A stretch of DNA of 64,000 nt. Source: Candidatus Daviesbacteria bacterium (lineage in GTDB: Bacteria > Patescibacteriota > Microgenomatia > Daviesbacterales > UBA10151). Under the pieces are notes generated by a model. It worked only from the letters and a program-made list of their open reading frames with translations, had not been told where the DNA came from and ran no database searches. Within the stretch, counting starts at the first letter, position 1, and each line of letters opens with the position of its first letter. Made by a program: the position numbers and the translations under genes. Shown piece after piece: positions 2,702 to 48,271 of the stretch. The DNA lies in NCBI GenBank assembly GCA_016184225.1, contig JACPDA010000005.1:67590-131589 (forward strand). Reading direction: 5' to 3'.

Positions 2702-3118
2702 ATGGCAAATCGTGGAAATGTTATTGGAAAATTCAGTGAGGAAGTTCAAGAAGCGGCGAGTGAAGTTGCAGAGGATGTTAAAGACTCGGTAGGCGAGGCA
2801 ATTGAACAAGGTGTTCAATTCGCAGCAGCATCCCAGCTTACTCCTCAACAACTGCAACAAAAGCAGCAAACAGACCAAAAAAAAGAAGTAGACAGACAAA
2901 AACAGCTGAGTTATACCAGAAACTGGTTGAGTAATTTAGAGGCGGCACAAGCAAAAGTAAGGGCAGAGAATAAACAAAAAGAACAGCAAAGACTGCAAGC
3001 AGAGCAACAGGAAAAACAAGTTGTGGAAATGAAAAAAGAAGAAAAGAAGAAGAGGCCTGTTAATCCGGCCGTAGCTTATGCCGGCAAAGTAGAATTTAAA
3101 AGAGGAGTAGGAGGTTAA
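2702..3118 (+). CDS. Hypothetical Q/E/K-rich coiled-coil protein
   Basis: 138-aa ORF in an operon position between recR and cysS. Its stop overlaps the cysS ATG. Low-complexity sequence, no recognisable domain. Confidence 0.45.
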   Translation: MANRGNVIGKFSEEVQEAASEVAEDVKDSVGEAIEQGVQFAAASQLTPQQLQQKQQTDQKKEVDRQKQLSYTRNWLSNLEAAQAKVRAENKQKEQQRLQAEQQEKQVVEMKKEEKKKRPVNPAVAYAGKVEFKRGVGG

Positions 3119-7753: not shown

Positions 7754-9172
7754 ATGGGAAGCAAGATAGGCGAAAAATGTGGGATATTTGGAAGTTTCGG
7801 CAAGGGATTTGAGGCAGCTAGGTTGGTTCACCCAGGGCTTTGGGCCCTGCAACATCGGGGTCAGGAATCTTCAGGAATTTCTTCATCTGACGGAAAAAAG
7901 ATTTATCTTCACAAGGGAATGGGTTTAGTTTCACATGTTTTCGGGGAAGAAGATTTAAGAAAATTAAAAGGTCACTTGGCAGTCGGCCATAACCGTTATT
8001 CTACTTCAGGTGATTCAGTCATTTCTCATGCTCAACCAATTTTAGAAAAGGTTAGTGGCGGTAAGTTTATTGCCTTAGTTCATAATGGCAATCTCCCGTC
8101 AATGAAAAAGTTAGAAGAATTCTTAAAAAGCAAGGTAATTTCTATCAAAGATCTTAATGATTCCGAAATGATTGCCAAAGCAATTGCAGTTTTAATGAAT
8201 GAGGATTTAAGTTTGGAAGAAGCCATCAAAAAAGTCTACCCTTTGCTTACCGGAGTATTTTGTTTGCTTGTTATGGATGAGAAAAAACTTATTGCTGTTA
8301 GGGATAGTTTCGGCATCAGGCCACTTTGCCTGGGAAAGTTAAACGGCGGGTTTATTGTAGCATCGGAAACTTGTGCGCTAGATATTGTCGGGGCAAAGTT
8401 TTTACGGGAAGTTAAGCCTGGGGAAATGGTGGTAATTGATGATGTGGGTTTGCAGAGTATTCAGATAGAAAAAGGCAAACAAAAGTTGGATGTGTTTGAA
8501 TATGTCTATTTTGCCAGACCGGACAGTATAATCTTGGGAAAAAGTGTTGATCTGGTCCGGCAAAATTTAGGGAAAGAACTGGCGAAAGAAAACCTGATTA
8601 AAGCCGATATCGTCATCCCCATCCCTGACTCCGCGATCCCGGCAGCGATTGGATTTTCCAGGCAGTCCAACATTCCTTTTGAAATGGGTCTGATTAAAAA
8701 CCGTTACATCCACCGGACTTTTATTTCTCCGGAGCAGCATACCCGCCACAGAATTGTCCAGCTAAAACTTAATCCAATGAAACACATTATTGCCGGGAAA
8801 AGGGTCATTGTGATTGATGATTCAATTGTGAGAGGTACCACTTCAAAACAAATTATGAAAATGTTAAAAGATGCCGGTGCAAAAGAAATCCACCTTTTGG
8901 TTTCATCGCCACCGATTAAGTTTCCGGATTTTTACGGCATTGATACTCCAGACCAAAATGAATTGATTGCCGCTGTAAAAAACATTAAAGAGATAGAAAA
9001 AGAATTAGGAGTTGATTCACTGCATTATTTATCTTACGGTGGTTTGATAAGAGCGATTGGTTTACCGGAAAGCTTACTTTGTACGGCTTTATTTAATGGA
9101 AATTATCCGGTGGACATTGGCGAGCGGAGTAAAGAAATCACCTATGAAAAAAATAGCGGTATTAATATCTAA
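7754..9172 (+). CDS. purF: Amidophosphoribosyltransferase
   Basis: N-terminal nucleophile Cys (M..CGIFG), a Ntn glutaminase domain and a PRTase domain. Confidence 0.9.
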   Translation: MGSKIGEKCGIFGSFGKGFEAARLVHPGLWALQHRGQESSGISSSDGKKIYLHKGMGLVSHVFGEEDLRKLKGHLAVGHNRYSTSGDSVISHAQPILEKVSGGKFIALVHNGNLPSMKKLEEFLKSKVISIKDLNDSEMIAKAIAVLMNEDLSLEEAIKKVYPLLTGVFCLLVMDEKKLIAVRDSFGIRPLCLGKLNGGFIVASETCALDIVGAKFLREVKPGEMVVIDDVGLQSIQIEKGKQKLDVFEYVYFARPDSIILGKSVDLVRQNLGKELAKENLIKADIVIPIPDSAIPAAIGFSRQSNIPFEMGLIKNRYIHRTFISPEQHTRHRIVQLKLNPMKHIIAGKRVIVIDDSIVRGTTSKQIMKMLKDAGAKEIHLLVSSPPIKFPDFYGIDTPDQNELIAAVKNIKEIEKELGVDSLHYLSYGGLIRAIGLPESLLCTALFNGNYPVDIGERSKEITYEKNSGINI

Positions 9173-11039
9173 TATTGGCACCGGCACAAATTTACAAGCC
9201 ATTATTGATGGGGTTAAGTCCGGGCAAATTACTGCCAGTATTGTAGCTGTTATAAGCGATACCCCGGATGCCAAAGGCTTAGAGCGGGCAAAAAAATACA
9301 AGTTACCGATTGAAGTAGTTTCCAAAAAAGAAAACCTGTTGCCTCTTTTGAAAAAATTAGATCCGGATTATGTCTGCCTGGCCGGATGGAAGCAGATTAT
9401 TCTAGACAGCGTGATTGATGCATTTCCCAACCGGATTTTAAATACCCATCCGGGGTTAATACCAGACAGTATGGATGGGGTTGTAAAAAACCCGGATGAA
9501 ACCGAGGCATTGTGGAATAAAGGAAAAATGACCGATAAAGCGGTACGAAATTTTCTGGAAACTAAAGCCACTTACGCCGGATGCACGAATCACTTTTTAT
9601 CGCTTGAATTTGATTTTGGCCCGGTGTTGGGCAGGTGTTTTGAAAAAATCAAAAAAGGAGACACAATTGAATCTTTATATAAAAGATTAAAGGTAAAGGA
9701 AAATAAATTATATGTGGATGTTTTAGCTAAGTTAGTGCTTTCCAAAACAGTTATGGTCATTGACGGTGGAGGCAGAGGGGCGGCGTTAGTTGATAAATAT
9801 GCTCAGTCTAAAAAGGTATCTAGAATACTGGTTGTACCAGGTAATGATTTGATGCAAGTAAATACTAAAAAGCCGGTTATCACATACCAAAATCTTAAAA
9901 CCACCAGTATTCCTGAAATTCTAAAAATTTGTCAAAAAGAGAAAGTAGATTTGGTAGATGTAGCTCAAGATAATGCAGTAGAAGCTGGGTTGGTAGATCG
10001 ATTGGCGGAAATTGGTATTAATGTATTCGGTCCTACAAGAAAAGCAGGACAGATTGAATGGGATAAGGCCTGGGCCAGGAAATTCATGGTTAAATATCAA
10101 ATTCCAACTCCGAAGTTTCACGCTTTTAATTCAACAAAAGAAGGAATAGATTTTGTCAAAAAATATCCTGATTCAAAATGGTTTGTCAAAGCATCTGGGT
10201 TAGCAGAAGGAAAAGGGGCGATACCGGCATCAACTATTAATGAAGCCATTACAGCTATTGAACAAATGCAAAAGTTTGGAAAGTCCGGAGAAACTTATCT
10301 TTTAGAAGAGTGGTTGATCGGGGAGGAATTTTCCGCATTTGCCCTAAGTGATGGAAAAGAATTTAAAATGGTCGGTTTTGCACAGGACCATAAAAGAGTA
10401 AATGATGGGGACCAGGGAGAAAATACAGGAGGGATGGGTTGTGTTTCCAATCCTTTAATAATTGACAAAAATATCAGAAAACAAACAGAAAACATTTTCA
10501 TAAAAGTAATAGATGGGTTAAAAGAAGAGGGACGGCCATATAAAGGAGTTTTGTATTTGGGAGGGATTGTGGTTGAAGGAAAGGTGTTTATTATAGAATT
10601 CAATGCCAGATGGGGAGATCCTGAGGCAGAGGCGGTACTACCTTCAATACAAAATAATCTTTTTGATTTAGCAAACACAATTAATCTGGGCGGATTAAAG
10701 AAATTAAAAATAAGAATTGATAAAAAAGTAAGAGTGGTGATTGCAGCAACAGCAAAAGGTTATCCGGTAGATTATAAATCAGTGAGGGGTAAAAAAGTTT
10801 TAGGGATTGATAAGGTAAAGGAGACCGGAGTAAAAATTTATGGATCAGGTATTAAAAAAGTGGATTCAGGTTATACAGTTAATGGCGGAAGAGTTTTGTA
10901 TATAGTTGGCGAAGGGAAAAATGTTATAGAGGCAAGAGAAAGAGCTTACAAGGCAATGAGGCTGATTAGCATTGAAGGAAATAACTTGCATTACAGAACA
11001 GACATTGGCTGGCGTGACCTAGAAAGGATAAAAAGATGA
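9144..11039 (+). CDS. purN-purD: Fused GAR transformylase (PurN) and GAR synthetase (PurD)
   Basis: N-terminal PurN (KIAVLISNIGTGTNLQAI, NTHPGLIP, EFDFGPVLG) runs straight into PurD ATP-grasp (VMVIDGGGRGAALVDKY). Start moved to the MKKIAVL methionine at 9144. Confidence 0.8.
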   Translation: MKKIAVLISNIGTGTNLQAIIDGVKSGQITASIVAVISDTPDAKGLERAKKYKLPIEVVSKKENLLPLLKKLDPDYVCLAGWKQIILDSVIDAFPNRILNTHPGLIPDSMDGVVKNPDETEALWNKGKMTDKAVRNFLETKATYAGCTNHFLSLEFDFGPVLGRCFEKIKKGDTIESLYKRLKVKENKLYVDVLAKLVLSKTVMVIDGGGRGAALVDKYAQSKKVSRILVVPGNDLMQVNTKKPVITYQNLKTTSIPEILKICQKEKVDLVDVAQDNAVEAGLVDRLAEIGINVFGPTRKAGQIEWDKAWARKFMVKYQIPTPKFHAFNSTKEGIDFVKKYPDSKWFVKASGLAEGKGAIPASTINEAITAIEQMQKFGKSGETYLLEEWLIGEEFSAFALSDGKEFKMVGFAQDHKRVNDGDQGENTGGMGCVSNPLIIDKNIRKQTENIFIKVIDGLKEEGRPYKGVLYLGGIVVEGKVFIIEFNARWGDPEAEAVLPSIQNNLFDLANTINLGGLKKLKIRIDKKVRVVIAATAKGYPVDYKSVRGKKVLGIDKVKETGVKIYGSGIKKVDSGYTVNGGRVLYIVGEGKNVIEARERAYKAMRLISIEGNNLHYRTDIGWRDLERIKR

Positions 11040-13858
11040 TACAGAAGATAAGAGTGCAAACAATTGGACAACCCAATATTAAAGTTTACCGGTTGGAAGG
11101 GATATCAGTAAAAGATGCTAAAATTCTGGCTGAAAAATTATTGTCAGAGCGAATTAATCAAAAATACACAATAAATCAGCCTATTGCCCGCGGCAAAGTT
11201 ATTGAAATCGCCTATAAACCTGGTGTGATGAATCCGGAGGTGGTATCGATAACCAAAGCTGCATCTGATTTGGGGATTAAACTTATTTCCTGCGACAGTT
11301 CCATTGAATACCTCAGTCAAAAAGTTTCCTTTAATCCTTTAACAGAACACATAATTACAGAAGAACCAAAAACTCTGATTTTAAAAGCTAAACCCGGAAA
11401 GACACAAATTATTTCTATAAGAAATTTGACTGACCAGCAGTTGTTGGATTTATCCAAAGATACGCTTTTCCTTAATTTGGAAGAGATGAAAAAAGTCCAG
11501 AAGTATTTCCAAAAAATAAAAAGAGATCCGTCAGATTTGGAGCTTGAGACTTTAGCCCAAACTTGGAGTGAGCATTCCGGCCATAAAACTTTTAAAGCGG
11601 ATTTAATAATAGACGGTAAGGAAAAAGAACCCCTGATGACTCGGCTGAAAAAGGAAGCCTTAAAACATGATAAAAATATTGTTTCTGCCTTTGTTGATAA
11701 TTCCGGTGTGATGGATTTTTACGACGGTTTTGGGATTTGCGGTAAAGTAGAAACTCATAATGCCCCTTCAGCAATCGAACCTTACGGCGGGGCCATGACT
11801 GGTTCAGGCGGAGTATTCCGGGATATTGCTGCTACTGGTAAAGGCGCAAAAAACATTGCCTCAACAGATGTCTTTTGTTTTGCTCCATTGGATTTATCAG
11901 CTAATGAATTGCCCATGGGGTGTTTGCCGCCTGAATATTTACTAAAAAGGGTTGTGGCCGGTGTCAGGGATTATGGTAATAGGATGGGAATTCCCACTAA
12001 TAATGGCTCAGTTCATTTTCACAAAGATTTCCGGGCCAAGCCTTCGGTGATTGTAGGGGCCTTTGGAATTGTTCCCAAAAAATATGCCAAAAAGGAAAAG
12101 CCAAAAGTGGAAGATCTGATAATTACAATCGGCGGCAGAACAGGTAGGGATGGAATTCATGGGGCTACATTTTCTTCCGGAGAAATGACTGAGAAAACAA
12201 TTGAAGTGCATTCTTCCGCAGTCCAAATTGGCAATGCTATTGAAGAAAAAAGGATGTTTGATGCGCTATTGGAGGCGCGTGATCAGGATTTAATAAGGTT
12301 GGTGCAGGATTGCGGCGGAGGAGGATTTTCCTCAGCAATTGGGGAAATAGGTGAGGAGTTGGGGGTCTTGATTGACCTTAAAAATGCTCCTTTAAAATAT
12401 CAGGGTTTAGCTCCTTGGGAAATTTGGATGTCAGAGTCACAAGAGCGGATGATTGTGGTTTTAGAAAAAATAAACCTGAAGAAATTTGAGGATATTTGTA
12501 AAAAGTACAATGTGGAATTTGCAGTTTTGGGAAAGTTTGATGGAAGTAAGAAATTGAATGTGACTTTTGAAGGTAAAGTAGCTGGTGATTTAGACATGCA
12601 ATTTCTTCATCATGGGTTACCAAAAAGGATTCTAATAGCAAAAAAATCAAATCGTCATTCTGGGGAGCAAAGCGACTCCAGAATCAAAAAAGGATCCTGG
12701 ACAAGCCAGGATGACAGAGTGGAACAGCCTAAGACTGAAAGAGAATGGATAAAGGTTTTAGAAAAAGTGCTAGCTCATGGAAATGTTAATTCCAAAGAAC
12801 CAATTGTTAGATTGTATGATCATTCAGTTCAAGGGACAAATGATCTGCAGTCTTATTCGGGAACTAATTTAGATGGGCCAAATGATTCACCGGTTCTCCG
12901 CCCTTTTCTTGATAAGAAGTATGGCATGGTAATTTCCCATGGATTAAATCCTGTCTTAAATAATATAGATCCGTATTGGGGGAGCATCTGGGCGGCAACA
13001 GAAGCACTCTCCAATTTTGTAGCAGTCGGAGGGAATTACAAAGAAGCTTGCTTAATTAATAATTATATTTGGCCATTTCCGGATGAGCAGTCTCTTTGGT
13101 CTTTAGATAGGTCGGTTGATGCGGTTGTAGATTTTATGAAAACTTTCAAGATTCCTGTAATTTCTGGGAAAGACAGTTTGTCCTCGTCTTACAGAAGCAA
13201 AGATGGAAAAGTAATTAAAATCCCACCTGTACTTTGTATCTCCGTTTTGGGAAAAATTCCTGATGCCGGAAAAACTGTTACTGCAGATTTTAAACGCAGT
13301 GGTTCAACAATTGTTTTAGTAGGTAAAATGGATAAGAATCTTGGAGGCTCTGTTTATTATCAAGTACTTTACCCTGAGCGAGCGGAGCAAGTCGAAGGGC
13401 CAAAAGTTGATTTGAAGATTTTGCCAAAGACTTTTGATGCAATTTGCAAAGGGATACAGACTGGTAAGATTCTATCTTCCCATGATGTTTCGGAAGGTGG
13501 CGTAATTGGGGCTATTTTTGAAATGTGTGTAGGCGGAGGAATGGGAGCGACCATTCACCTCGGAGGAGTAACTTCGTCACACCTCCGAGGTGACCGAATG
13601 GGCTCCTCGGAGGTGGAATTCTTGTTTAATGAAACAGCAGGGTGTTTTATTGTGGAGGTGGAAAATGAAAGTATGGCAAAACAACTTTTTAAGAATGTGC
13701 CATTTAGGATTTTAGGTAAAACAAAAGAAGGAAATAAAATGGAAATATATGGAAATAAGACAAGCTTGCCGCTTCGCGATAAAAAGAAATTATTTGTTGT
13801 GGATGTAAATGATTTGAAGAAAGTTTGGCAGGAACCAATGAGGAGGTTATTCCCATGA
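11036..13858 (+). CDS. purL: FGAM synthase synthetase subunit PurL with a PurS-like N-terminal domain
   Basis: The AIRS-like PurL core (HSGHKTFKA…NAPSAIEPYGGAMTG) is preceded by about 170 aa resembling the PurS / large-PurL N-terminus (YKPGVMNPEVVSITKAASDLGI). It contains an in-frame repeat-element insert (RHSGEQSDSRIKKGSWTSQDD). Confidence 0.85.
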   Translation: MIQKIRVQTIGQPNIKVYRLEGISVKDAKILAEKLLSERINQKYTINQPIARGKVIEIAYKPGVMNPEVVSITKAASDLGIKLISCDSSIEYLSQKVSFNPLTEHIITEEPKTLILKAKPGKTQIISIRNLTDQQLLDLSKDTLFLNLEEMKKVQKYFQKIKRDPSDLELETLAQTWSEHSGHKTFKADLIIDGKEKEPLMTRLKKEALKHDKNIVSAFVDNSGVMDFYDGFGICGKVETHNAPSAIEPYGGAMTGSGGVFRDIAATGKGAKNIASTDVFCFAPLDLSANELPMGCLPPEYLLKRVVAGVRDYGNRMGIPTNNGSVHFHKDFRAKPSVIVGAFGIVPKKYAKKEKPKVEDLIITIGGRTGRDGIHGATFSSGEMTEKTIEVHSSAVQIGNAIEEKRMFDALLEARDQDLIRLVQDCGGGGFSSAIGEIGEELGVLIDLKNAPLKYQGLAPWEIWMSESQERMIVVLEKINLKKFEDICKKYNVEFAVLGKFDGSKKLNVTFEGKVAGDLDMQFLHHGLPKRILIAKKSNRHSGEQSDSRIKKGSWTSQDDRVEQPKTEREWIKVLEKVLAHGNVNSKEPIVRLYDHSVQGTNDLQSYSGTNLDGPNDSPVLRPFLDKKYGMVISHGLNPVLNNIDPYWGSIWAATEALSNFVAVGGNYKEACLINNYIWPFPDEQSLWSLDRSVDAVVDFMKTFKIPVISGKDSLSSSYRSKDGKVIKIPPVLCISVLGKIPDAGKTVTADFKRSGSTIVLVGKMDKNLGGSVYYQVLYPERAEQVEGPKVDLKILPKTFDAICKGIQTGKILSSHDVSEGGVIGAIFEMCVGGGMGATIHLGGVTSSHLRGDRMGSSEVEFLFNETAGCFIVEVENESMAKQLFKNVPFRILGKTKEGNKMEIYGNKTSLPLRDKKKLFVVDVNDLKKVWQEPMRRLFP
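12654..12715. repeat. Dispersed palindromic repeat family 2 (GTCATTCTGG…GACTCCAGAATC…GATYCTGGACAAGCCAGRATGAC), in-frame in purL
   Basis: gtcattctggggagcaaagcgactccagaatcaaaaaaggatcctggacaagccaggatgac. Confidence 0.75.
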
Positions 13859-14637
13859 AGCCCAAAGTATTAGTTTTAAAAGCAGATGGGACAAATCGGG
13901 ATTACGAGATGTCATATGCTTTCAATGTTGCCGGGGGGAATCCCAAAATAGTGCATGTAAATGAACTTAGAAACGGATCTGAAAAAATGAGTGATTATCA
14001 AATCCTTGCTTTGCCCGGTGGATTTGCCTATGGGGATGATATTGTTTCCGGAAAAATCCTGGCAATAGAACTTACCTCTTTTTTAGGTCAGGAAATGAGA
14101 AAGTTTATTGACAGAAAAGATACGGCAATAATTGGAGTGTGCAACGGGTTTCAGGTTTTAGTCAGAACCGGACTTTTGCCGTTTAGAAAAATCGGGGAAA
14201 TGGATGTGACTTTAACTAACAATGATTCAGGACATTTTGAATGCCGGTGGATTAAGTTAAAAGTTAACGGTAAAAACAACAGCAAATTCCTTCAGGGAAT
14301 AGATGGAATAATGTGGCTTCCCATAGCGCATGGAGAAGGAAAATTCCTTACCGATCAGAAAACTTTAAAAGAAATAGAAAATAAAAATCTGGTAGCCTTT
14401 AGGTATGTAGATGATAATGGCAGCCCGACACAAAAGTATCCGGATAATCCGAACGGTTCCTTAAATGCCATAGTCGGGATAACAGATGAGACGGGAAGAA
14501 TTTTAGGGATGATGCCGCATCCGGAGTGTTTTATTAGAGCAGAGCAACACCCAAACTGGAGACGTGGTACAGTGAAAGTTGACGGCTTACCAATTTTTGA
14601 AAATATAGTGAAATTTGCGAAGGAGAATAAAAAATGA
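13855..14637 (+). CDS. purQ: FGAM synthase glutaminase subunit
   Basis: Class I GATase with the catalytic Cys in GVCNGFQ and an ATGA overlap with purL. Confidence 0.85.
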   Translation: MKPKVLVLKADGTNRDYEMSYAFNVAGGNPKIVHVNELRNGSEKMSDYQILALPGGFAYGDDIVSGKILAIELTSFLGQEMRKFIDRKDTAIIGVCNGFQVLVRTGLLPFRKIGEMDVTLTNNDSGHFECRWIKLKVNGKNNSKFLQGIDGIMWLPIAHGEGKFLTDQKTLKEIENKNLVAFRYVDDNGSPTQKYPDNPNGSLNAIVGITDETGRILGMMPHPECFIRAEQHPNWRRGTVKVDGLPIFENIVKFAKENKK

Positions 14638-16193
14638 TTTTATTAATTGATTTCGGATCACAGACAACACATTTAATAGCAAGAAGGGTTAGAGAACTGG
14701 GGTCAGAGGTTGAGATTGCAACTCCCGAAGTTGCCGTACAAAAAATTAGAGCAGAGGAAATACAGGGAATAATTTTATCCGGAGGGCCGGCAGCGGTTTT
14801 TGAAAAACAGTCCCCGACAGTTAACCCGGAGATTTTTGAGTTAGGTATTCCGGTTTTAGGGATTTGTTACGGACAACAATTAATGTGTCATTTATTAGGA
14901 GGAGAAGTAGTGGCTGGTAGAAAAAGAGAGTATGGACCGGCGGTAGTTAGGCAACAGGCAACAGGCGATAAGCGGAGCTTGCGACCTAGCGGTCTTAGGC
15001 CACAGTTTTTGGAAGGGATACCGGATGAGTTTACCGCTTGGATGAGTCACGGGGATCAGGTAATTAAGATACCGGAAGGGTTTGTGACATATGGCACAAC
15101 GGAGACAATACCACACGCTATTATTGCTAATGAAAAAAGAAAATTTTATGGAATTCAGTTTCATCCTGAAGTGGTCCATACCGAATTTGGGGAACAAATC
15201 CTTAAAAACTTTTTAGAAATTTGTGGAATAAAAATAAAGAAACAAGAAATTGACGGCGAGTTTGTAGAAAATCTTATTAAAAATATCAGGGATTCGCTGG
15301 GAGAGGAAAAAGCGATTTGCGCTTTGTCCGGAGGAGTTGATTCTTCTGTGGTAGCGCTTTTGGTGCACAAAGCCATCGGTAAAAATTTAACATCTGTTTA
15401 TGTTGACTCCGGATTAATGAGGGAAGGCGAGACGGAAACTCTGAGGAGTGTTTTCCAACAGCATTACAAAATGAATGTTGATATAGTTGATGCAAAAAAA
15501 GAATTTCTCAAAGCATTAAAGAAAGTTGTGGATCCGGAGCAAAAAAGAAAAGCTATTGGCAAAACTTTTATAGAAGTTTTTGATAATGTGGCAAAAAAAA
15601 TTTATGCCAAGTTTTTGGTCCAGGGAACTATTTATCCGGATGTGATAGAGTCCGCCGGCAGCAAGCACTCGCAAAAAATAAAATCACACCACAATGTTGG
15701 AGGTTTGCCGGAAGAGATGAATTTAATTTTAATTGAACCTTTAAGAAATTTTTATAAAGATGAAGTAAGAAAAATTGGTAGGATTTTAGGACTCCCTGAT
15801 GAGATTATAGAAAGGCAACCTTTTCCCGGTCCGGCCCTTGCAGTAAGAATTATTGGTGAGGTGACAGAAGAAAAGTTAGAGATTTTAAGGAAAGCAGATA
15901 AAATTGTACTAGAGGAAATAGAAAAAGCCGGGTTAGGTAAAAAACTTTGGCAATATTTTGCAGTTTTTACCGGCATTAAAACTACCGGCGTCCGGGGAGA
16001 CCAGAGGTTTTACGGTGAAACAATTGCCATCCGGGCAATTGAAGCAACCGATGCCATGAGTGCCAGCTTTGCCAAACTGCCTTATGATTTACTTGATAAA
16101 ATTTCCACCAGGATTGTCAATGAGGTTCCCGAAGTGAACCGCGTAGTTTATGACATTACCAATAAACCCCCAGCCACTATGGAATGGGAGTAG
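14634..16193 (+). CDS. guaA: GMP synthase (glutamine-hydrolysing)
   Basis: GATase domain, ATP-PPase SGGVDSSV motif and a C-terminal dimerisation domain. Confidence 0.9.
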   Translation: MILLIDFGSQTTHLIARRVRELGSEVEIATPEVAVQKIRAEEIQGIILSGGPAAVFEKQSPTVNPEIFELGIPVLGICYGQQLMCHLLGGEVVAGRKREYGPAVVRQQATGDKRSLRPSGLRPQFLEGIPDEFTAWMSHGDQVIKIPEGFVTYGTTETIPHAIIANEKRKFYGIQFHPEVVHTEFGEQILKNFLEICGIKIKKQEIDGEFVENLIKNIRDSLGEEKAICALSGGVDSSVVALLVHKAIGKNLTSVYVDSGLMREGETETLRSVFQQHYKMNVDIVDAKKEFLKALKKVVDPEQKRKAIGKTFIEVFDNVAKKIYAKFLVQGTIYPDVIESAGSKHSQKIKSHHNVGGLPEEMNLILIEPLRNFYKDEVRKIGRILGLPDEIIERQPFPGPALAVRIIGEVTEEKLEILRKADKIVLEEIEKAGLGKKLWQYFAVFTGIKTTGVRGDQRFYGETIAIRAIEATDAMSASFAKLPYDLLDKISTRIVNEVPEVNRVVYDITNKPPATMEWE

Positions 16194-28532: not shown

Positions 28533-29447
28533 ATGCCTGAACGTAGGAAAAAAAGAAAAAAACGCAGTGCATCGAAGCAATCCGGCGTATCTTTATTTGT
28601 TATAGTAATTTTGTTATTTAGTGCGGCGCTCCTAATTGTTAAAGGATCAGGTTTTAATAAACCAATTCCGGATGTTGTCGAAATACCTAAAGAAGTGCAG
28701 GAATCAATTAAAAATGTAAAACCGCAAAAGTATCTACGAGTACCAATTCTTTTATATCACTATGTAGAGTATGTGAAAGACCCGAAGGATACAATCAGGA
28801 AATCGCTAAACTTAGAACCTCATGCTTTTGATTTGGAGGTGAAAACTTTGCAGGAAGCAGGATATAGCTTCATCACTTTAGCTGATTTGGCTGATGGTCT
28901 GGATGACAAAAGGACTTTGCCTGCAAAATCCGTTATTTTAACTTTTGATGACGGATACAGGGATTTTTATACGGACGTATTCCCGATCCTTAAAAAATAC
29001 CAAATAAAAGCAGTCGTTTTTGTCATTCCTAATTTTATAGACAGGCCGGATAATTTAACTACTTGGATGATTTCTGAAATTATCAAAAGCGGGTTAGTAG
29101 AAATAGGTGCACATACCATGAATCATACATATTTGCGCGGGCTATCTTTGAACCAAGTCCGGTATGAGATAGAGCAGAGCAAGAGCTACCTTGAGAAGAG
29201 TTTCGGCATCCAGGTTATCTCTTTCGCTTATCCTTATGGAGCTTTTGATAACGGGGCTATTGATGAAGTTAAAAAGGCGGGATTCAGGACTGCTGTAACT
29301 ACCATCCCCGGTACTTTCAGCATGGATGTTAATAGGTTTTTTCTTTATAGAGTTAGGCCGGGAGGAAGAGTGGGCCCGGATCTTTTGGAACTGTTAGAGA
29401 GAACAAAAGTTACCTCCATTCCTAAAAATGAAAATATCTTATCTTGA
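28533..29447 (+). CDS. Polysaccharide deacetylase (NodB homology domain) with an N-terminal TM anchor
   Basis: NodB motifs (TFDDGY, HTMNH). Confidence 0.8.
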   Translation: MPERRKKRKKRSASKQSGVSLFVIVILLFSAALLIVKGSGFNKPIPDVVEIPKEVQESIKNVKPQKYLRVPILLYHYVEYVKDPKDTIRKSLNLEPHAFDLEVKTLQEAGYSFITLADLADGLDDKRTLPAKSVILTFDDGYRDFYTDVFPILKKYQIKAVVFVIPNFIDRPDNLTTWMISEIIKSGLVEIGAHTMNHTYLRGLSLNQVRYEIEQSKSYLEKSFGIQVISFAYPYGAFDNGAIDEVKKAGFRTAVTTIPGTFSMDVNRFFLYRVRPGGRVGPDLLELLERTKVTSIPKNENILS

Positions 29448-35581: not shown

Positions 35582-37513
35582 TTAGATGCGGGTGACGGTG
35601 CGGAACGTTTGACTGCCGGAGGTGGAGGAAACGATTACATAACTTGGAGCTCGAGATACCCCATCTTTAACTAGTTCATAAGATGAAGAACTTGGTATAT
35701 AAGTCATAGTACCGTAATTTTTGACGGCTAAAGTAGCTTTGCCTAAAGAAGTACTGGTAGCTTTTACTATTAATTGCCTTTTGGAAGTAGAATAGGTAGC
35801 TGAGGTGATTTTGACTATATCCTTAATCACTTTTACTATTGTGGTATCTTGAGCGCTGGCGCCTGCTGCGTCTTTAACTGTTAAAATCACTGTGAAAGTA
35901 CCTGTTTTGCTATAGGTTTTATTGACTGTTTGTCCGGCTCCGGTAGTACCATCACCAAAGCTCCAGCTGTAGGTGTAAGGACCTTGCCCGCCGGTAGCTC
36001 CGCCAGAGAAAGTAACGGAAGTTTTTAAGAACTCTATTTTATCCGCTCCGGCGTCAGCTTTTAAGGGAGCCGGAACAGGGGTTGGTGTAGGAGTCGGTGA
36101 TGGAATAGGTGTCGGAGTGGGAGTAGGGCTTGGGGTAGGTGCCGGCATGGTATTGCCTAGATTTAACCTTTTTCCGCTAAGTGTTTTTCCTGTCAGTGCT
36201 GCTGTCGGATCAGAAGAGGTAAGAAGTTTGTCTTTAATCTGGAGGTGAGACAAAGAGTTTGATATCCCCCAAAGATAAGCTGCTGCGCCGGATACATGGG
36301 GGGTGGCCATAGAAGTACCGCTCATTAAACGATAGCCACTAGGGTCGCAACTACCACAGGCGCCTTTTGGTACGGTGGAAAAAATACTGACTCCCGGAGC
36401 GCCTATATCCACTGTGGCGGCACCGTAGTTGGAGAATGAGGCTAAATTATCATATTTATCAGTGGCTGCTACCGAGATAATATTTGGCAGGTCATATGAA
36501 GCAGGATAGAAGTAAGTTGCATCATTATTATTGGCAGCATTTCCTGCCGCAGCTATAAACAAGGAACCGGCATTATTGGCAGCAGAAATGGCATCATAAA
36601 GGGCTTGGGAATACCCGCCTCCGCCCCAGCTATTGTTAGTGATTTTAAAGTTCATCACAGTGGCATATTGGATGGCTCTAATTGCGCCGTCTATAGTGCC
36701 TGCGCCTGAAGCATTTAAAAATTTCAAAGCAGCAACTTTACCCGGGTAATTTACCCCGGCGACTCCTACCCCGTTATTACCTACAGCTGCAATTGTGCCT
36801 GCAACATGGGTTCCGTGACCATGGTCATCTATCGGGTCAGGGTCGTTATTGACAAAATCATAGCCGTAAATATCATCTACAAAACCGTTTCCGTCATCAT
36901 CCACTCCTGCCTGACCAACTGCTTCGGCGCTATTTTTCCACATATTGGCGCTTAAGTCTTCATGGTTATAATCGATCCCGGTATCAATTACACCTGTAGT
37001 AACGCTACTGCCGTAAGGGGTATCCCAGGCCTCGGGAGCATCAATATCTGCATCTGTGGTTCCACCGGATTGACCGGTATTATTAAGGCCCCATAAATTA
37101 ACGAACAAGGGATCGTTTGGAAGTTGGCTGGTGTGAAGAATGAAATTAGGTTCGGCATATTCTATTTCAGGATCGCTTTTTAGTTTTTGCAAAAGCTCGG
37201 GCAGCTTTTGTTCGTCGGTGGAGGCCACATAGAGCTTATCCAAGCCTTTGTCTTTAAAGGCTTGGATTTTCTCCTGGCGTTTTTGAGCACGGTCTAACTC
37301 CCGCAAGATCTTTCTGGCTGAGCGGAGTTGGAATTTGTTTACTACTTCTTCTTCCGCCGGACTGACAGTTTTGAACTTAATAATTAATTCACCCGGGACA
37401 TATTCAAAAGATGATGGTAAGTTTTGTGGAGACTGCGCAAAAGCAGTCCCAAAACTAAGTGCGGAAAGAGAAAAAATAAGGAGGAATGATAAAAATTTGA
37501 GGCAGTTTTTCAT
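35582..37513 (-). CDS. Secreted subtilisin-like serine protease (S8) with I9 propeptide, PT-rich linker and PKD-like domain
   Basis: D/H/S catalytic blocks (VIDTGID, HGTHVAG, GTSMATPHVSG), a PAPTPSPTPTP linker and YTYSWSFGDG. Confidence 0.85.
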   Translation of the reverse strand: MKNCLKFLSFLLIFSLSALSFGTAFAQSPQNLPSSFEYVPGELIIKFKTVSPAEEEVVNKFQLRSARKILRELDRAQKRQEKIQAFKDKGLDKLYVASTDEQKLPELLQKLKSDPEIEYAEPNFILHTSQLPNDPLFVNLWGLNNTGQSGGTTDADIDAPEAWDTPYGSSVTTGVIDTGIDYNHEDLSANMWKNSAEAVGQAGVDDDGNGFVDDIYGYDFVNNDPDPIDDHGHGTHVAGTIAAVGNNGVGVAGVNYPGKVAALKFLNASGAGTIDGAIRAIQYATVMNFKITNNSWGGGGYSQALYDAISAANNAGSLFIAAAGNAANNNDATYFYPASYDLPNIISVAATDKYDNLASFSNYGAATVDIGAPGVSIFSTVPKGACGSCDPSGYRLMSGTSMATPHVSGAAAYLWGISNSLSHLQIKDKLLTSSDPTAALTGKTLSGKRLNLGNTMPAPTPSPTPTPTPIPSPTPTPTPVPAPLKADAGADKIEFLKTSVTFSGGATGGQGPYTYSWSFGDGTTGAGQTVNKTYSKTGTFTVILTVKDAAGASAQDTTIVKVIKDIVKITSATYSTSKRQLIVKATSTSLGKATLAVKNYGTMTYIPSSSSYELVKDGVSRAPSYVIVSSTSGSQTFRTVTRI

Positions 37514-37590: not shown

Positions 37591-37878
37591 CTATTTAGTA
37601 AAACCGCCGTGGGACTGAATGTTTTTATAAGTTTGGGTTAATTTTTCCTTCACTTTTTCCAGGCTTTGGGAAGTAGATATATTCATAGTGTATTTTCTGT
37701 AATTTAACCATTCCGCTTCTGTAATTTTATTTAAGGATTTAACAACAACACTATCCAGCGAGCCTGATTCCCAGCTAATTATTTTAACTACTAGTTTAAA
37801 CAGTTTATCTTTTGCTGCTTGGGCTTTTAAGAGGGCCAGTTTTCTTTCATCTTGTGTTTTTGAGGGGCTTATTATCAT
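37591..37878 (-). CDS. Hypothetical protein (95 aa)
   Basis: ORF only. Confidence 0.3.
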   Translation of the reverse strand: MIISPSKTQDERKLALLKAQAAKDKLFKLVVKIISWESGSLDSVVVKSLNKITEAEWLNYRKYTMNISTSQSLEKVKEKLTQTYKNIQSHGGFTK

Positions 37879-37977: not shown

Positions 37978-38676
37978 TTAGGGTTTGCAGAGGGTGGATT
38001 GGGAGCCGCTTATTGAATCTGCAGGTGGGAGGCTTTTGACCTTGGATGAGTCCTCGGGTGGTAATAGATCAAACCAGCAGATGGCATTTTCCCGAGGACT
38101 TGAGAAAATTTTCCCCCTCATATCATATACCCCAAAATCTACAAAAACGTTGTTGTTTTGTCTGAACCCAACCGCTGTAGCAATAATTTCCCCCTTGGTA
38201 ACACTTATCTTTTGGCTAAGTCTGGAAGTTCTTGAATCATGTTCTTTGGCCGCCGACAGCTCTTCTATTACTTTGGCAAATTTAGGGGTAAGTGTTAATA
38301 GGTGATCAAAACGGTACATTATTCCGCAAGAGGTTCTAAAATCAAGCAGATATTGTACTTCTCCTTGTTCGATATATCTGCTGGCACTATCAAATTCTGC
38401 ATCTATTGGAGCTTTAACCTCGATTTCATCAGTTCTAGAGTTATCAAAACGGAATCCTCCGTGTGGTTTAAAATCCCCGCCCCTGACTTGGCCAGGATAA
38501 AGGATGGAAGTGACTTTGTTCATATCAACTGGAGTCTGTAGAACGAGAGGGCTTGGACAATCCGGTGTACTCTTCGATTCCCAAGGCGCAGGTCCAGCCG
38601 GCTTACGAAAGAAGAATCCAAAGCCCAAAATAGCAACTACAATAAGCACTGCAATTACTAAAATCTTGGGCAGCAT
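37978..38676 (-). CDS. Hypothetical membrane-anchored protein (232 aa)
   Basis: N-terminal TM helix and a soluble domain with no recognisable motifs. Confidence 0.4.
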   Translation of the reverse strand: MLPKILVIAVLIVVAILGFGFFFRKPAGPAPWESKSTPDCPSPLVLQTPVDMNKVTSILYPGQVRGGDFKPHGGFRFDNSRTDEIEVKAPIDAEFDSASRYIEQGEVQYLLDFRTSCGIMYRFDHLLTLTPKFAKVIEELSAAKEHDSRTSRLSQKISVTKGEIIATAVGFRQNNNVFVDFGVYDMRGKIFSSPRENAICWFDLLPPEDSSKVKSLPPADSISGSQSTLCKP

Positions 38677-38746
38677 ACTTTAAGTTTAGCATATATTACA
38701 CCAACCAGAACTTGACTCAAAGTTTAAATTTAAATATAGTATAAAT

Positions 38747-38974
38747 ATGGGGAAAATAGCAATTATTGTTGCCTTAATCCTTATTCTTGGCGGTGGGGCA
38801 TATGTCTTTTTAAACAGTGGCAAGATTCCAGGTATTGGCAAAAAATCACAAGCACCATCCTTAGGTGAACAAATTTATAATCAGCAAAATCCTCTTGGGG
38901 ATAAATTGCCCGAAACCAACCCGTTTGCTAAGGTGAATCCATTTAAAGGGGTATATAAAAATCCATTTCAATAA
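38747..38974 (+). CDS. Small TM protein (75 aa)
   Basis: ORF with an N-terminal TM segment, immediately upstream of the Cys-rich protein. Confidence 0.3.
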   Translation: MGKIAIIVALILILGGGAYVFLNSGKIPGIGKKSQAPSLGEQIYNQQNPLGDKLPETNPFAKVNPFKGVYKNPFQ

Positions 38975-38977
38975 ATT

Positions 38978-40378
38978 ATGAAACTTAAGAATTTCATTTT
39001 TCTTATTGCAACATTCATATCATTTTTGATAGGGGCCCAGGTATCTCCGGCAGTTTTTGGTGCAACGCCCACACAGTATGGCTTTACATTTCCAGTTGGC
39101 GAGCTGAATAACTGTGCAACTGTGGCAGAATGCGGAAATTACTGTGAGAAAGACGGTAATCTTCCGGCGTGCATGGCATTTGTGAAAAAGTACAAAATTA
39201 CCAAAGATGATGTATTAACATTCACTATTGATGAACTGGGTAATTGTCAGATGGGTTCTGATTGCCGCAATTTTTGCAACCGTGACGAAAATATTACCAA
39301 ATGCATTGATTTTGCCGATAAATATGACCTGCTTTCTACCAGCAATCTTGAACTGGCGCAGAAATTTGCCAAAGCAGTTGGTTCCGGAGGTGGGCCGGGG
39401 GGCTGCAGGAGCCTTGAGCAGTGTGACCGCTATTGTGACATAAGTGAACATACCAACGAATGTCTTGACTATGTGGGCAAGAAGGATTTATTACCACGTA
39501 ATGAATTGGCACAAGTTCGCAAAGTGGCAGAGGGTTTTAGACAGGGAATAGAAACCCCGGGTAAGTGTCGTGATTACACGGAGTGCAATGTTTATTGTAC
39601 TGATTCTAGCCACTCTAACGAGTGCGGAGTTTATGCTGTAAAGGTTGGTTTTATCACAACCGAGGAGGCAGAACAGGCCAAAAAATATGGCGGAACCGGT
39701 CCTGGAGGTTGTAAATCAGAGCAAGAATGTAGCGCTTTTTGTCAACAGCCATATAATCAGAGAGTCTGCTTAAGTTATGCAAACGAACATAATATAAAAG
39801 TAGATTTTAAAGGACCCGGCGGTTGTAGTGATATTTCATCCTGCACATCTTACTGTACTAAAAGTAAGTCTGATCCAGAGTGTCAAAAGTACGCTAGTCA
39901 ATACCAAGGATTTAAAGGGCCTGGCGGGTGTGAGGATGAAGCCTCCTGCAAAACTTATTGTCAGGCTAATCCTGCTGATGCGGAATGTAAACAATATGCC
40001 GGTCAATATGGCGGATTTTCCGGACCTGGAGGGTGTAGTGATGTAGGATCTTGTACTGCCTATTGTAAAGATCACTATCAAGATCAAGAATGTCAAAAAT
40101 ACTCAAGCCAGTATGGTGGAGGATTTTCCGGGCCTGGCGGGTGTAATTCAGAAAGCTCATGTAAAGCTTACTGCACTGCCAACTCTGGGGATGCAGCCTG
40201 TAAACAATATGCCGGTCAATATGGCGGATTTTCCGGACCTGGTGGGTGTACGGATGAGGCTTCTTGTACCTCTTACTGTAAGTCAAACCCCAAAGATTCA
40301 GCTTGTGCCCCATATGTTGGCCAGTATAAAGATCAATACCAACAGCAAAATCAGCAACAACAACCTCAACCACAATAG
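38978..40378 (+). CDS. Secreted cysteine-rich tandem-module protein (about 10 modules of GPGGC-x5-C-x3-C-x8-C…QYGGF, Q-rich tail)
   Basis: Signal peptide; about 30-aa modules with 4 Cys each repeated head-to-tail, ending QQQNQQQQPQPQ. Confidence 0.6.
   Translation: MKLKNFIFLIATFISFLIGAQVSPAVFGATPTQYGFTFPVGELNNCATVAECGNYCEKDGNLPACMAFVKKYKITKDDVLTFTIDELGNCQMGSDCRNFCNRDENITKCIDFADKYDLLSTSNLELAQKFAKAVGSGGGPGGCRSLEQCDRYCDISEHTNECLDYVGKKDLLPRNELAQVRKVAEGFRQGIETPGKCRDYTECNVYCTDSSHSNECGVYAVKVGFITTEEAEQAKKYGGTGPGGCKSEQECSAFCQQPYNQRVCLSYANEHNIKVDFKGPGGCSDISSCTSYCTKSKSDPECQKYASQYQGFKGPGGCEDEASCKTYCQANPADAECKQYAGQYGGFSGPGGCSDVGSCTAYCKDHYQDQECQKYSSQYGGGFSGPGGCNSESSCKAYCTANSGDAACKQYAGQYGGFSGPGGCTDEASCTSYCKSNPKDSACAPYVGQYKDQYQQQNQQQQPQPQ
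39380..40335 (+). repeat. Tandem roughly 90-bp coding repeats inside the Cys-rich protein gene
   Basis: Recurrent ggacctggnggntg…caatatggcggattttccgg blocks seen directly. Confidence 0.6.
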
Positions 40379-45919: not shown

Positions 45920-47140
45920 ATGAGAGTTTTCTTTCAAAATATCAACGCAAAGTTAGTTCTAATCGTAATACTTTCTTTCCTGTTGGGCTGGCAGGTAGCC
46001 CATCGGGAAGTGCAAATCAGATGGGCTACTTACAAGCCTACTGTTTCGGTAAAAAATAAAATTCCCCCTGAGAATATTAAGGTGGATTTCAAATTATTTT
46101 GGGATACATGGGACCTGCTATCCCGTTCTTACTTCGATAAGAAGACCATTGATCCTAATAAGTTATTTTACGGGGCTATTTCAGGCATGGTCGCTGCTTT
46201 GGGAGACCCTTATACGGTATTTTTGCCACCGGAACAACAAAAGTTCTCCCAGGATGAGTTAAACGGCAGTTTTGAGGGTGTAGGTATTCAACTTGGATTC
46301 AATAAGGATAAAAGACTGGTAGTGATAGCTCCGCTTTCAGGAACTCCTGCAGAAAAAGCCGGAATTAAACCGGAGGATGAGATTGTCAAAATTGAAGATA
46401 AAGATACTACCAATATGACGCTTCCGGAGGCAGTGGGATTAATAAGAGGTGCTAAAGGGACACAAGTTACGTTGACCATTTTTAGGGAAGGAGATTCGGA
46501 TACAAGAGAGATTAGTCTGATGCGGGATACCATTATTGTCAAAAGCGTGGAAGTTTCTTTCAAAAATACCCAGTCGGATAAAAAGGTGGCAGTGGTGAAG
46601 CTGTCGAGGTTTGGGGAAAGAACCCAGGATGAGTGGAATAAAGCAGTTAACAGCCTGATTTTAGCTAATTCAAAGGCTTTGGTTTTGGACTTAAGGAATA
46701 ATCCCGGCGGGTTTTTGGAGGGGGCCGTATTTATTGCATCGGAATTTTTAGAAGGAGAAGAGGTAGTTTTACAAGAAAATAGTGACGGGGAAAGAGCTTC
46801 TTTTAAAGTTACGAGAGCAGGAAAGTTGACGGAAATTCCGCTTGTGGTATTGATTAATAAAGGTTCTGCCTCTGCCTCAGAGATTGTGGCAGGTGCGCTG
46901 CAGGATAGAAGAAGAGGTCAACTGGTGGGAGAAAAATCATTTGGCAAAGGCACCATTCAGGAAGCACAAAATCTCTCGGGCGGAACAGGGATCCATATTA
47001 CTGTGGCAAAGTGGTTGACCCCCAGCGGCAGATGGGTTAATGATACTCAAGGTTTTGAACCTGATGTTAAAATAGAAGGCGACAAAGATGATGTAACTAA
47101 AGATCCACAGTTGGATAAGGCAATGGAACTGCTGGAGTGA
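45920..47140 (+). CDS. ctpA: Carboxyl-terminal processing protease (S41) with PDZ
   Basis: PDZ domain plus S41 catalytic blocks (NNPGG; GSASASEIVAGALQD). Confidence 0.85.
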   Translation: MRVFFQNINAKLVLIVILSFLLGWQVAHREVQIRWATYKPTVSVKNKIPPENIKVDFKLFWDTWDLLSRSYFDKKTIDPNKLFYGAISGMVAALGDPYTVFLPPEQQKFSQDELNGSFEGVGIQLGFNKDKRLVVIAPLSGTPAEKAGIKPEDEIVKIEDKDTTNMTLPEAVGLIRGAKGTQVTLTIFREGDSDTREISLMRDTIIVKSVEVSFKNTQSDKKVAVVKLSRFGERTQDEWNKAVNSLILANSKALVLDLRNNPGGFLEGAVFIASEFLEGEEVVLQENSDGERASFKVTRAGKLTEIPLVVLINKGSASASEIVAGALQDRRRGQLVGEKSFGKGTIQEAQNLSGGTGIHITVAKWLTPSGRWVNDTQGFEPDVKIEGDKDDVTKDPQLDKAMELLE

Positions 47141-47146
47141 AACGCT

Positions 47147-48271
47147 ATGGATAATTCGAAATTACCAAAACTTAATACTGCCGGCATAGTTGTAGCGATA
47201 CTGCTGGGAGTAGTGGTGGCTGTAGGGGTGTATCAAGCTCAAGCGAGGGGTTTGATACCAGCATTTCCTGGGAACTTCCCTAAACTGGAAACCAGGGAAA
47301 CTAGGACAGTTATCCAAGAAGAGAATGCAGTTGTTTCCACAGTTGAAAAAGTCTCCCCTTCTGTGGTGGCAATTGGCGCCACTATCAGAACTTTTAATCC
47401 TTTTGATCCTTTTTCGCTGCCACGGAGCCAAAATAGTACTATCGGTACAGGTTTTGTTGTATCAGAGAAAGGGATTATTGTAACCAATAAGCATGTGGTG
47501 GATGATCCTGATATTAAATACAATGTAGTTACAAAAGACGGTCAAAAGTATGAAATCAGGAAAATTTACCGGGATCCGGTTTTGGACTTGGCGATTGTCC
47601 AAGTGGATGCAGGCGACTTAAAGGCTTTGGAGCTTGGCGATTCTTCCAAGCTTAAGGTTGGTCAAACAGTCATAGCTATTGGGAATGCTTTGGGCAGGCT
47701 TACCAACACTGTTACAACAGGTGTTGTATCAGGAGTGGGCAGAAGGGTAGTGACCGGGGATCCTTTCTCGGGAACAGCCGAGAGTTTAGATGATTTGATC
47801 CAAACAGATGCGGCTATTAATCCGGGTAATTCGGGAGGGCCGCTTTTAAATTCCGCCGGTCAGGTGATTGGAGTGAATGTTGCTGTGACAGAGGGGGCGC
47901 AAAATATCGGCTTTGCCATCCCGATCAATTCGGTGAAGAAAATTACCGATGAATTTATCCAAACAGGCTCAGTTTCCCGGCCATTTTTGGGTATTTCTTA
48001 CAGGTTTATTTCTAAAGATGTAGCCATTATGAATGAAGTTCCTCAAGGAGCTTATATCCAGGAGGTAGTGGTAAACTCATCTGCCGATAAAGCCGGAATA
48101 AGAGTTGGGGATATTATTACTAAAGTGGACGGCCAATCGGTTGATTCTGAAACCAAAATCTCTCAAGTGATTGGGAGTAAAAAAATGGGGGGTAATTTAA
48201 ATTTGACTGTTTGGAATGACGGAAAAGAAAGAAGTGTAACTGCCACTTTACAAGAGCTGCCAAATCAGTAA
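47147..48271 (+). CDS. htrA: HtrA/DegP-family serine protease with PDZ
   Basis: Trypsin-like H/D/S blocks (TNKHVV; DLAIV; GNSGGPL) and a PDZ domain. Confidence 0.85.
   Translation: MDNSKLPKLNTAGIVVAILLGVVVAVGVYQAQARGLIPAFPGNFPKLETRETRTVIQEENAVVSTVEKVSPSVVAIGATIRTFNPFDPFSLPRSQNSTIGTGFVVSEKGIIVTNKHVVDDPDIKYNVVTKDGQKYEIRKIYRDPVLDLAIVQVDAGDLKALELGDSSKLKVGQTVIAIGNALGRLTNTVTTGVVSGVGRRVVTGDPFSGTAESLDDLIQTDAAINPGNSGGPLLNSAGQVIGVNVAVTEGAQNIGFAIPINSVKKITDEFIQTGSVSRPFLGISYRFISKDVAIMNEVPQGAYIQEVVVNSSADKAGIRVGDIITKVDGQSVDSETKISQVIGSKKMGGNLNLTVWNDGKERSVTATLQELPNQ

Follow-up and report, generated by a model that had tools for sequence, protein, structure and literature searches.

Among described proteins, close counterparts of the one reported here include the Hcp proteins of Helicobacter (HcpA-E) and other Sel1-like repeat (SLR) proteins, which are secreted and repeat, head to tail, a cysteine-braced helix-turn-helix element about 36 amino acids (aa) long. 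In the CS-alpha/alpha and CS-alpha/beta peptides, a helix-borne C-x3-C pair cross-linked to two other segments forms the classical cysteine-stabilised helix. The bacteria of the Candidate Phyla Radiation (CPR, or Patescibacteria) account for much of bacterial diversity; their genomes are very small, and the cells live on the surfaces of other cells. To our knowledge, almost none of the proteins of their unusual envelope has been identified. Here, we describe a gene in a 64,000-nt stretch of a contig from Candidatus Daviesbacteria, an ultra-small groundwater bacterium (JACPDA010000005.1, positions 67,590 to 131,589; hereafter the window) that encodes a predicted secreted protein of ten tandem four-cysteine helical units, together with the small membrane-protein gene immediately upstream of it. 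The array protein belongs to a large family, all taxon-named members of which are CPR bacteria, and the upstream gene, whose product ends in three NPF motifs, accompanies it at every locus compared. Family and pairing together point to a cell-surface device.

The open reading frame (ORF) begins with ATG and encodes 466 aa, 8.6% of which are cysteine. All 40 cysteines fall within exactly ten C-x5-C-x3-C-x8-C units, whose first cysteines (C1) lie at aa 46, 90, 143, 197, 245, 283, 318, 353, 389, and 424; elsewhere in a six-frame translation of the window, the pattern occurred once, as a spurious match on the minus strand near position 3006. The unit logo reads G-P-G-G-C-[KR]-[SG]-K-E-E-C-E-A-[YF]-C-D-D-P-E-[NH]-x-E-E-C-[LI]-x-[FY]-A-x-x-x-G. 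The initial annotation of this sequence had anticipated about ten tandem four-cysteine modules of fixed spacing, running from GPGGC to QYGGF. The number of modules and their spacing stand, whereas GPGGC precedes only seven of the ten units, and QYGGF-like junctions occur in units 6-9 only. The module size of about 30 aa, or 90 bp, was an underestimate, as the successive periods are 44, 53, 54, 48, and 38 aa, followed by 35, 35, 36, and 35 aa (105-162 bp), and Tandem Repeats Finder reported a single 108-bp period, at 39983-40269, with a 64% match. Across the family, the period is 48-54 aa, and the 35-aa GPGGC...QYGGF units are confined to a close Microgenomates subfamily; the ancestral unit is a three-helix element of about 52 aa, and the 35-aa units are a Microgenomates shortening.

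As had been proposed at the outset, the repeat array is old rather than the product of a recent duplication. Amino-acid identity between units is 18-42% within units 1-5 and 52-73% within units 6-10, third-codon-position identity between units is about 0.2-0.6, close to random, and unit order and spacing are kept among orthologues. Across the relatives, all four cysteines are retained in 1,011 of the 1,032 unit instances detected with a hidden Markov model (HMM). In the sole recurrent exception, five proteins lack C1 in the same orthologous unit, which is left with three cysteines.

The N-terminus, MKLKNFIFLIATFISFLIGAQVSPAVFG followed by A, has the appearance of a Sec-type leader without a twin arginine, and the cleavage site was read from the sequence and from relatives rather than called by a dedicated predictor. 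The C-terminus is QYQQQNQQQQPQPQ. Secretion, which the initial annotation had also proposed, is borne out across the family: among the 254 members from which we took architecture figures, 243 have a hydrophobic N-terminal segment, many with canonical cleavage sites after VFA or AFA.

A word-index search returned 1,720 homologues of the array protein, and an HMM search run exhaustively over 1.84 billion representatives returned 1,775 clusters at 50% identity with E<=1e-3, of which 960 were at <=1e-30. With more than 1,700 homologues and a conserved unit order, the reading that the ORF is not a gene is ruled out. A search in other CPR genomes had been suggested beforehand, and every match that carries a taxon name proved to be from CPR/Patescibacteria, all of the products being annotated as 'hypothetical'. 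The nearest relatives, at 55-80% identity, come from Levybacteria, Daviesbacteria, and Roizmanbacteria, and the distant ones, at about 30% identity, from Wolfebacteria, Sungbacteria, Harrisonbacteria, Yanofskybacteria, Paceibacteria, and other Parcubacteria. Viral relatives were found neither by sequence, in a scan of viral contigs, nor by fold, in BFVD. Some metagenome-assembled genomes (MAGs) carrying the gene pair bear other labels: those titled 'uncultured Gammaproteobacteria bacterium ... binchicken' (L005, L006, L011, L013-L015) have it at 53-80% identity to the Daviesbacteria protein, and those labelled 'uncultured Candidatus Saccharibacteria' (L019-L021, L023) at 31-36% identity. The genomes titled Gammaproteobacteria are almost certainly mislabelled Microgenomates.

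The gene directly upstream encodes a small single-pass membrane protein (Table 1), the stop codon of which lies 3 nt before the start of the array gene. Its extracellular tail, SLGxQIYxxQNPLxxKLPETNPFAKVNPFKGVYKNPFQ, ends in ...QNPLGDKLPETNPFAKVNPFKGVYKNPFQ, and from Microgenomates to Parcubacteria residues N48, P55, N64, P65, N72, P73, and F74 are invariant, while P49, N58, K62, F66, and Y70 are nearly so. The co-conservation of this gene, flagged beforehand as worth checking, is real: at all 29 loci compared, which span Microgenomates to Parcubacteria, a homologue of the partner immediately precedes the array gene on the same strand, even where, as in Harrisonbacteria, Wolfebacteria, and other Parcubacteria, identity between the array proteins falls to about 30%. 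The other neighbours differ by lineage, with ATP synthase, DnaK/DnaJ, or tRNA synthetase genes in some and YchF-RpsF-SSB in the window and Daviesbacteria. Because the partner is constant in all 29 loci and the other neighbours vary, we consider the gene pair to be a selectable unit, a two-gene cassette. The partner has no match in Pfam or NCBIfam and is unnamed in every source checked.

A consensus scan placed a promoter-like site, with 10 of 12 consensus positions matched, upstream of the partner only, in a region where the count of such sites does not exceed shuffle expectation, and found no terminator-like site before ychF. This arrangement is consistent with co-transcription of the cassette, and the position of the promoter-like site would imply a leaderless or near-leaderless cassette mRNA. 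No Shine-Dalgarno-like sequence precedes the ATG at 38747 or that at 38978. It is worth noting that the exact array-protein sequence is absent among the database matches (best BLASTP identities 56-75%); the 75-aa partner, by contrast, has a match of 100% identity in an NCBI hypothetical protein (P0121) from a Candidatus Daviesbacteria MAG. For the source MAG, the collection may lack the array gene, or the gene may not have been called.

Table 1. Features of the cassette and of its surroundings, in window positions.
Feature	Coordinates	Strand	Basis
Promoter-like site TTGACT-17-TATAGT, its end 7 nt upstream of the partner ATG	38712..38740	+	Consensus scan, 10/12 matches
Partner gene: 75-aa single-pass membrane protein, short basic N-terminus, transmembrane segment about aa 4-22	38747..38974	+	ORF, homologues
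Conserved partner tail, aa 38-75: NP[LVI], then three NPF at the extreme C-terminus	38858..38971	+	Alignment
Array gene: predicted secreted ten-unit helical repeat protein, putatively Cys-stapled	38978..40378	+	ORF, sequence, homologues
Predicted Sec signal peptide, aa 1-28, putative cleavage between VFG and A	38978..39061	+	Inferred from sequence and relatives
Units 1-5, long-period (44-54 aa), predicted three-helix	39089..39808	+	Sequence coordinates, AlphaFold2 models
Cys cores of units 1-5	39113-39172, 39245-39304, 39404-39463, 39566-39625, 39710-39769	+	Sequence
Units 6-10, short-period (35-36 aa), predicted two-helix, G/P/Y/Q-rich junctions (QYGGFSGPGG)	39809..40333	+	Sequence, AlphaFold2 model
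Cys cores of units 6-10	39824-39883, 39929-39988, 40034-40093, 40142-40201, 40247-40306	+	Sequence
Q-rich C-terminal tail, without the hydrophobic terminal helix of 135/254 relatives	40334..40375	+	Sequence
Exported polysaccharide deacetylase	28533-29447	+	
Exported cupredoxin-like protein, 153 aa	31641-32102	+	
Secreted S8 subtilase	35582-37513	-	
95-aa protein	37591-37878	-	
232-aa membrane-anchored protein	37978-38676	-	
S41/CtpB-like protease, adjoining HtrA-like protease	45920-47140, 47147-48271		

The relatives differ from the window protein in what surrounds the array. The proteins contain 4-11 units (median 7), and after the last unit typical relatives continue with a region of about 180 aa rich in P, G, E, and Q. 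A short hydrophobic or amphipathic C-terminal helix, such as RGLFQIIFDELFRR, then follows in 135 of the 254 members. After the P/G/E/Q spacer, this helix is a conserved element of about 15 aa in P0002, P0003, P0012, P0020, P0045, P0057, and others (e.g., RGLFQIIFDELFRR and SFLANVAAIFGF); no known sorting signal (LPXTG, PEP, or GlyGly) matches it, and in CPR bacteria it could serve as a new type of signal for anchoring or sorting. LamG/Laminin_G_3 domains are fused N- or C-terminally to the array in six of the nine largest members and in P0038 and P0067, and one relative (P0066) has a Kazal domain.

A structure prediction of a few modules had been called for beforehand, and an AlphaFold2 model of two units (aa 131-238) proved confident, with a predicted local distance difference test (pLDDT) of 90.7 and a predicted TM-score (pTM) of 0.71, all-helical by DSSP and with a defined geometry between the units. 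In this model, helix a1 bears C2 and C3 one turn apart, a2 bears C4, a3 serves as a linker helix, and C1 sits in the loop capping a1; all four cysteines lie within 20 residues of each other in the chain at a loop/two-helix junction. The full-length model is likewise all-helical, with a pTM of 0.36. Foldseek searches with the two-unit model against the PDB and BFVD gave only noise (best PDB match E 9.4), as did the full-length model against the PDB, where the best matches were TPR-like (E 0.8-3, TM-score 0.1-0.15). The unit thus appears to have a confidently predicted fold without a known relative.

Sequence searches were similarly empty. The array protein has no family in Pfam-A or NCBIfam (both E<=1), and the scans of these two collections yielded no relevant family for the array, the partner, or the neighbours. 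A phmmer search of the array protein against all PDB sequences (E<=10) returned nothing, and a 93-sequence two-unit profile returned nothing significant from the PDB (best E 0.36). Pfam labels carried by some relatives (AcrIC5, AtDEF-like, SPP1_GP23-1, HepT-like) were rejected as compositional, with no passing stretch. In the literature on CPR cysteine-rich or surface proteins we found nothing on this family, and the motif strings led only to SPASM Fe-S motifs and defensin signatures. The initial annotation had not recognised the module as a described domain and had named a clear match to a known cysteine-repeat family as the result that would overturn its view; the Pfam, NCBIfam, and PDB searches and the fold comparison returned no such match.

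Our preferred, though still tentative, reading is that the array forms an extracellular stalk or scaffold in the CPR envelope, built of helical units stapled by disulfides, with the NPF partner tethering or otherwise serving it. The Daviesbacteria array protein would be exported by Sec, lose its signal peptide, and fold outside the membrane into ten helical units. Within each unit, the C-x3-C pair of a1 would most likely be cross-linked to C1 in the loop and C4 in a2, giving two disulfides, and, stacked on one another, the stapled units may build a long and chemically robust scaffold or stalk between the membrane and the cell surface. The array protein and its partner would be made from one transcript and act together, the triple-NPF tail most likely docking on the array and thereby holding at the membrane surface, or helping to assemble there, a protein that has no other anchor. 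In the relatives, the array would display LamG domains and be anchored via the P/G/E/Q spacer and the terminal hydrophobic helix. Because the relatives carry LamG or a spacer with a hydrophobic C-terminal helix, the array is better seen as a display or spacer module than as an enzyme, and neither Pfam nor NCBIfam detected an enzyme or other known domain in the array protein. Taken together, the LamG fusions, P/G/E/Q spacers, and hydrophobic tails suggest a surface stalk.

The cysteine content of neighbouring proteins bears on the disulfides. Of the 61 exported-like proteins encoded at the 29 CPR loci (the window among them), 34 (56%) contain no cysteine, compared with 58 of 186 cytoplasmic-like proteins (31%), and the 40-cysteine array is an outlier in its own cysteine-avoiding exoproteome. 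Among the proteins that do contain cysteine, even and odd counts stand at 18:9 in the exported-like set vs. 57:71 in the cytoplasmic-like set (Fisher p=0.055), an underpowered trend that favours extracytoplasmic disulfides. Since the four cysteines of the unit are almost never lost among relatives, the loss of cysteine pairs gives no signal as to connectivity.

Several points weigh against a disulfide-stapled stalk. The bias towards even cysteine counts is not significant, and a tetrahedral metal site would be just as good a match for four cysteines contributed by a loop and two helices in the model, the disulfide geometry being itself inferred. CPR organisms typically come from anoxic groundwater. 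Within the window, there is no DsbA/VKOR or thioredoxin-type C[PG][HYPA]C motif, and we found nothing in the literature on CPR disulfide machinery. The three-cysteine unit of the five relatives is awkward for a strict two-disulfide model. In addition, docking of the NPF tail on the array is proposed from the adjacency of the two genes, and the low pTM of the full-length model does not establish a rigid rod for the short units.

The cysteines might instead be ligands of an extracellular Cys4 metal-binding array (Zn2+, Fe2+/3+ in rubredoxin-like fashion, Ni, Cd, or Cu) serving metal scavenging, storage, or buffering or, in the boldest version, an Fe(Cys)4 electron relay. We regard such an array as possible but unlikely. 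It would account for the all-or-none retention of the four cysteines, their clustering at the loop/two-helix junction, the strongly acidic surroundings with frequent His or Asn at C3+5, the tolerance of the three-cysteine variant, the probably anoxic habitat, and the lack of a Dsb-like motif in the window. At one Parcubacteria locus, moreover, the genes near the cassette include those for CcdA, an HMA P-type ATPase, and a thioredoxin-like protein. However, this metal-transporter neighbourhood is found at only one of the 29 loci, the units lack CxxC knuckles and match no metal-binding family or fold, Sec export of an unfolded chain excludes the insertion of an Fe-S cluster, acidic residues beside the thiolates disfavour Zn(Cys)4, and the LamG and spacer/tail architectures better suit structural display. 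A surface-tethered chain of 4-11 such Cys4 metal centres, docked by the NPF partner and built on a fold without a known relative, strikes us as distinctly unlikely; if true, the chain of metal sites would be a CPR-specific device for capturing metal from anoxic groundwater, or even an extracellular electron relay. The initial annotation had left a disulfide-rich surface scaffold or adhesin and a metal-binding array side by side; the field has since narrowed, with the disulfide scaffold preferred and the metal array as its main rival.

That the array is itself an adhesin, whose conserved repeat faces would bind a ligand on a host or partner cell, or on a polymer, in the episymbiotic attachment typical of CPR bacteria, with the NPF protein merely its anchor, we consider rather unlikely. 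Its restriction to CPR lineages, its predicted extracellular and repetitive nature with varying copy number, and its fusion to the lectin-like LamG speak for this, but, apart from the core (Cys, Y/F, F/Y, A, G), surface residues vary widely from unit to unit, the cassette lies among housekeeping genes and once per locus, unlike fast-evolving adhesin repertoires, and the need of relatives for a separate LamG domain suggests that domains other than the array do the binding. It is very improbable that the protein is a polyprotein cleaved between units into four-cysteine helical-hairpin peptides with antimicrobial or signalling roles, like the precursors of plant alpha-hairpinins. No conserved cleavage motif is present at the junctions, the long units pack with defined geometry, and C-terminal spacers or anchors and LamG fusions would be senseless in a peptide precursor; tandem four-cysteine helical units behind a signal peptide are what such a precursor would look like, and the window has genes for secreted proteases of the S8, S41, and HtrA types (with an S41 gene directly downstream in L026), but the proteases are not co-conserved. 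Finally, the 40 thiols might shield an oxygen-sensitive cell from oxidants as a sacrificial or catalytic extracellular buffer, as the abundance of cysteine in an otherwise cysteine-avoiding exoproteome might suggest. Fixed spacing and a place in the structural core indicate a structural or ligand role rather than exposed, reactive thiols, and no redox partner is co-conserved; we hold this last proposal to be highly improbable.

The window stretch around the cassette is rich in envelope functions, including proteases, a cupredoxin-like protein, and a deacetylase. The S8 subtilase combines a prodomain resembling that of fervidolysin with a P/T-rich linker and a PKD domain, and its PKD region gives a weak match (E 4e-5, far below the cut-off) to the NCBIfam family 'CPR pilus system RbmA-like protein PamR'. 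Between the subtilase gene and the cassette lie genes for a 232-aa protein with four extracytoplasmic cysteines and for a 95-aa protein; neither has a family match, and, judged by size, both appear syntenic with genes of the same size and strand near the cassette in a Daviesbacteria locus (L001). The S41/CtpB-like protease gene of the window lies 5.5 kb downstream of the array gene; in L026, an S41/CtpB-like PDZ protease gene (8652-9887) follows the array gene directly, a linkage not conserved elsewhere. Neither the S8+PKD, S41/CtpB-like, and HtrA-like proteases nor the deacetylase and the cupredoxin-like protein are linked to the cassette in other lineages, and linkage to the S8 protease, the S41 protease, GH18, or YchF was rejected as not conserved beyond close relatives. 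On one Patescibacteria contig (L025), an IS605 OrfB/TnpB (Cas12f-like) gene lies near the cassette (13831-15030). The Parcubacteria locus with the metal ATPase (L028, 8991-15519; one of the 29 loci) has, after the cassette and on the opposite strand, genes for the HMA P-type metal ATPase and for a CcdA/DsbD_TM and thioredoxin-like (Redoxin) pair. Such a pair constitutes an extracytoplasmic thiol-reducing pathway.

Overall, a cysteine-rich family of about 1,800 clusters at 50% identity is paired with a triple-NPF partner from Microgenomates to Parcubacteria, and such strict conservation in reduced genomes suggests that the pair matters to the envelope. The cassette is an easily expressed target, consisting of a 108-aa two-unit fragment and a 38-aa peptide; ETNPFAKVNPFKGVYKNPFQ could serve as a synthetic peptide. 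With it, a surface structure specific to CPR bacteria could be studied biochemically for the first time, and it is a candidate for Pfam or NCBIfam curation. As a working definition of the family we propose at least four tandem units behind a signal peptide and a gene for an NPF-tailed transmembrane protein directly upstream; the window protein has ten units and such a gene.

Compared with known systems, the array resembles the Hcp/SLR proteins, which are likewise secreted, with tandem helical repeats braced by cysteines into an elongated all-alpha scaffold. It differs from them in having four cysteines per unit rather than two, another spacing, and an ancestral unit of about 52 aa with three helices, and it is not a member of the Sel1-like repeat/Hcp family (PF08238, TPR clan), as there was no Pfam match at E<=1 and no fold superposition beyond noise. 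The CHCH domains (twin CX9C, as in NDUFB7 and Cox17), in which two disulfides staple a compact helical hairpin, follow the design that we propose for the unit, but they are single, mitochondrial, and oxidised by Mia40 rather than tandem secreted arrays; the spacing here is not twin C-x9-C, Pfam gave no CHCH match, and in the PDB search with the unit profile NDUFB7 reached only a non-significant E of 0.65-0.73. In the multi-modular precursors of plant alpha-hairpinins (C-x3-C-xn-C-x3-C), tandem four-cysteine helical modules are also secreted and carry C-x3-C on a helix, yet the present units are bacterial and not homologous to them, with one C-x3-C per unit and no cleavage motifs.

The likeness to CS-alpha/beta defensins (C-x5-C-x3-C-x9-C...) lies in the sub-pattern C-x5-C-x3-C, with C-x3-C in a helix, and this shared sub-pattern explains the weak AtDEF-like labels on some relatives. 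Defensins need 6-8 cysteines and a beta-sheet, whereas the unit has four and is modelled as all-helical; the array protein does not match AtDEF-like (PF25052), and the matches of its relatives have no passing stretch. Fe-S motifs (ferredoxin CxxCxxCxxxCP; SPASM CX2CX5CX3C) were rejected given the absence of C-x2-C in the units, the Sec leader, and the lack of a Pfam or NCBIfam match, and no sequence match to Zn-ribbon or metallothionein-type families was found with Pfam, NCBIfam, or the PDB profile. Most relatives recall Gram-positive wall-associated proteins in their order of signal peptide, repeats, P/G/E/Q spacer of about 180 aa, and C-terminal hydrophobic segment. Their terminal stretch, however, is short and contains acidic residues, and the NPF-tailed partner has no counterpart there; sortase/LPXTG substrates can be set aside, as the array protein ends in QQQNQQQQPQPQ and the tails of relatives (e.g., GLFQIIFDELFRR) lack the motif. 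Because membership in each of these nearest analogues was tested and did not hold, we class the array among the cysteine-braced alpha-repeat surface proteins. The locus therefore represents an undescribed domain family with an undescribed partner family, within the broader group of secreted, cysteine-braced alpha-repeat proteins of the cell surface.

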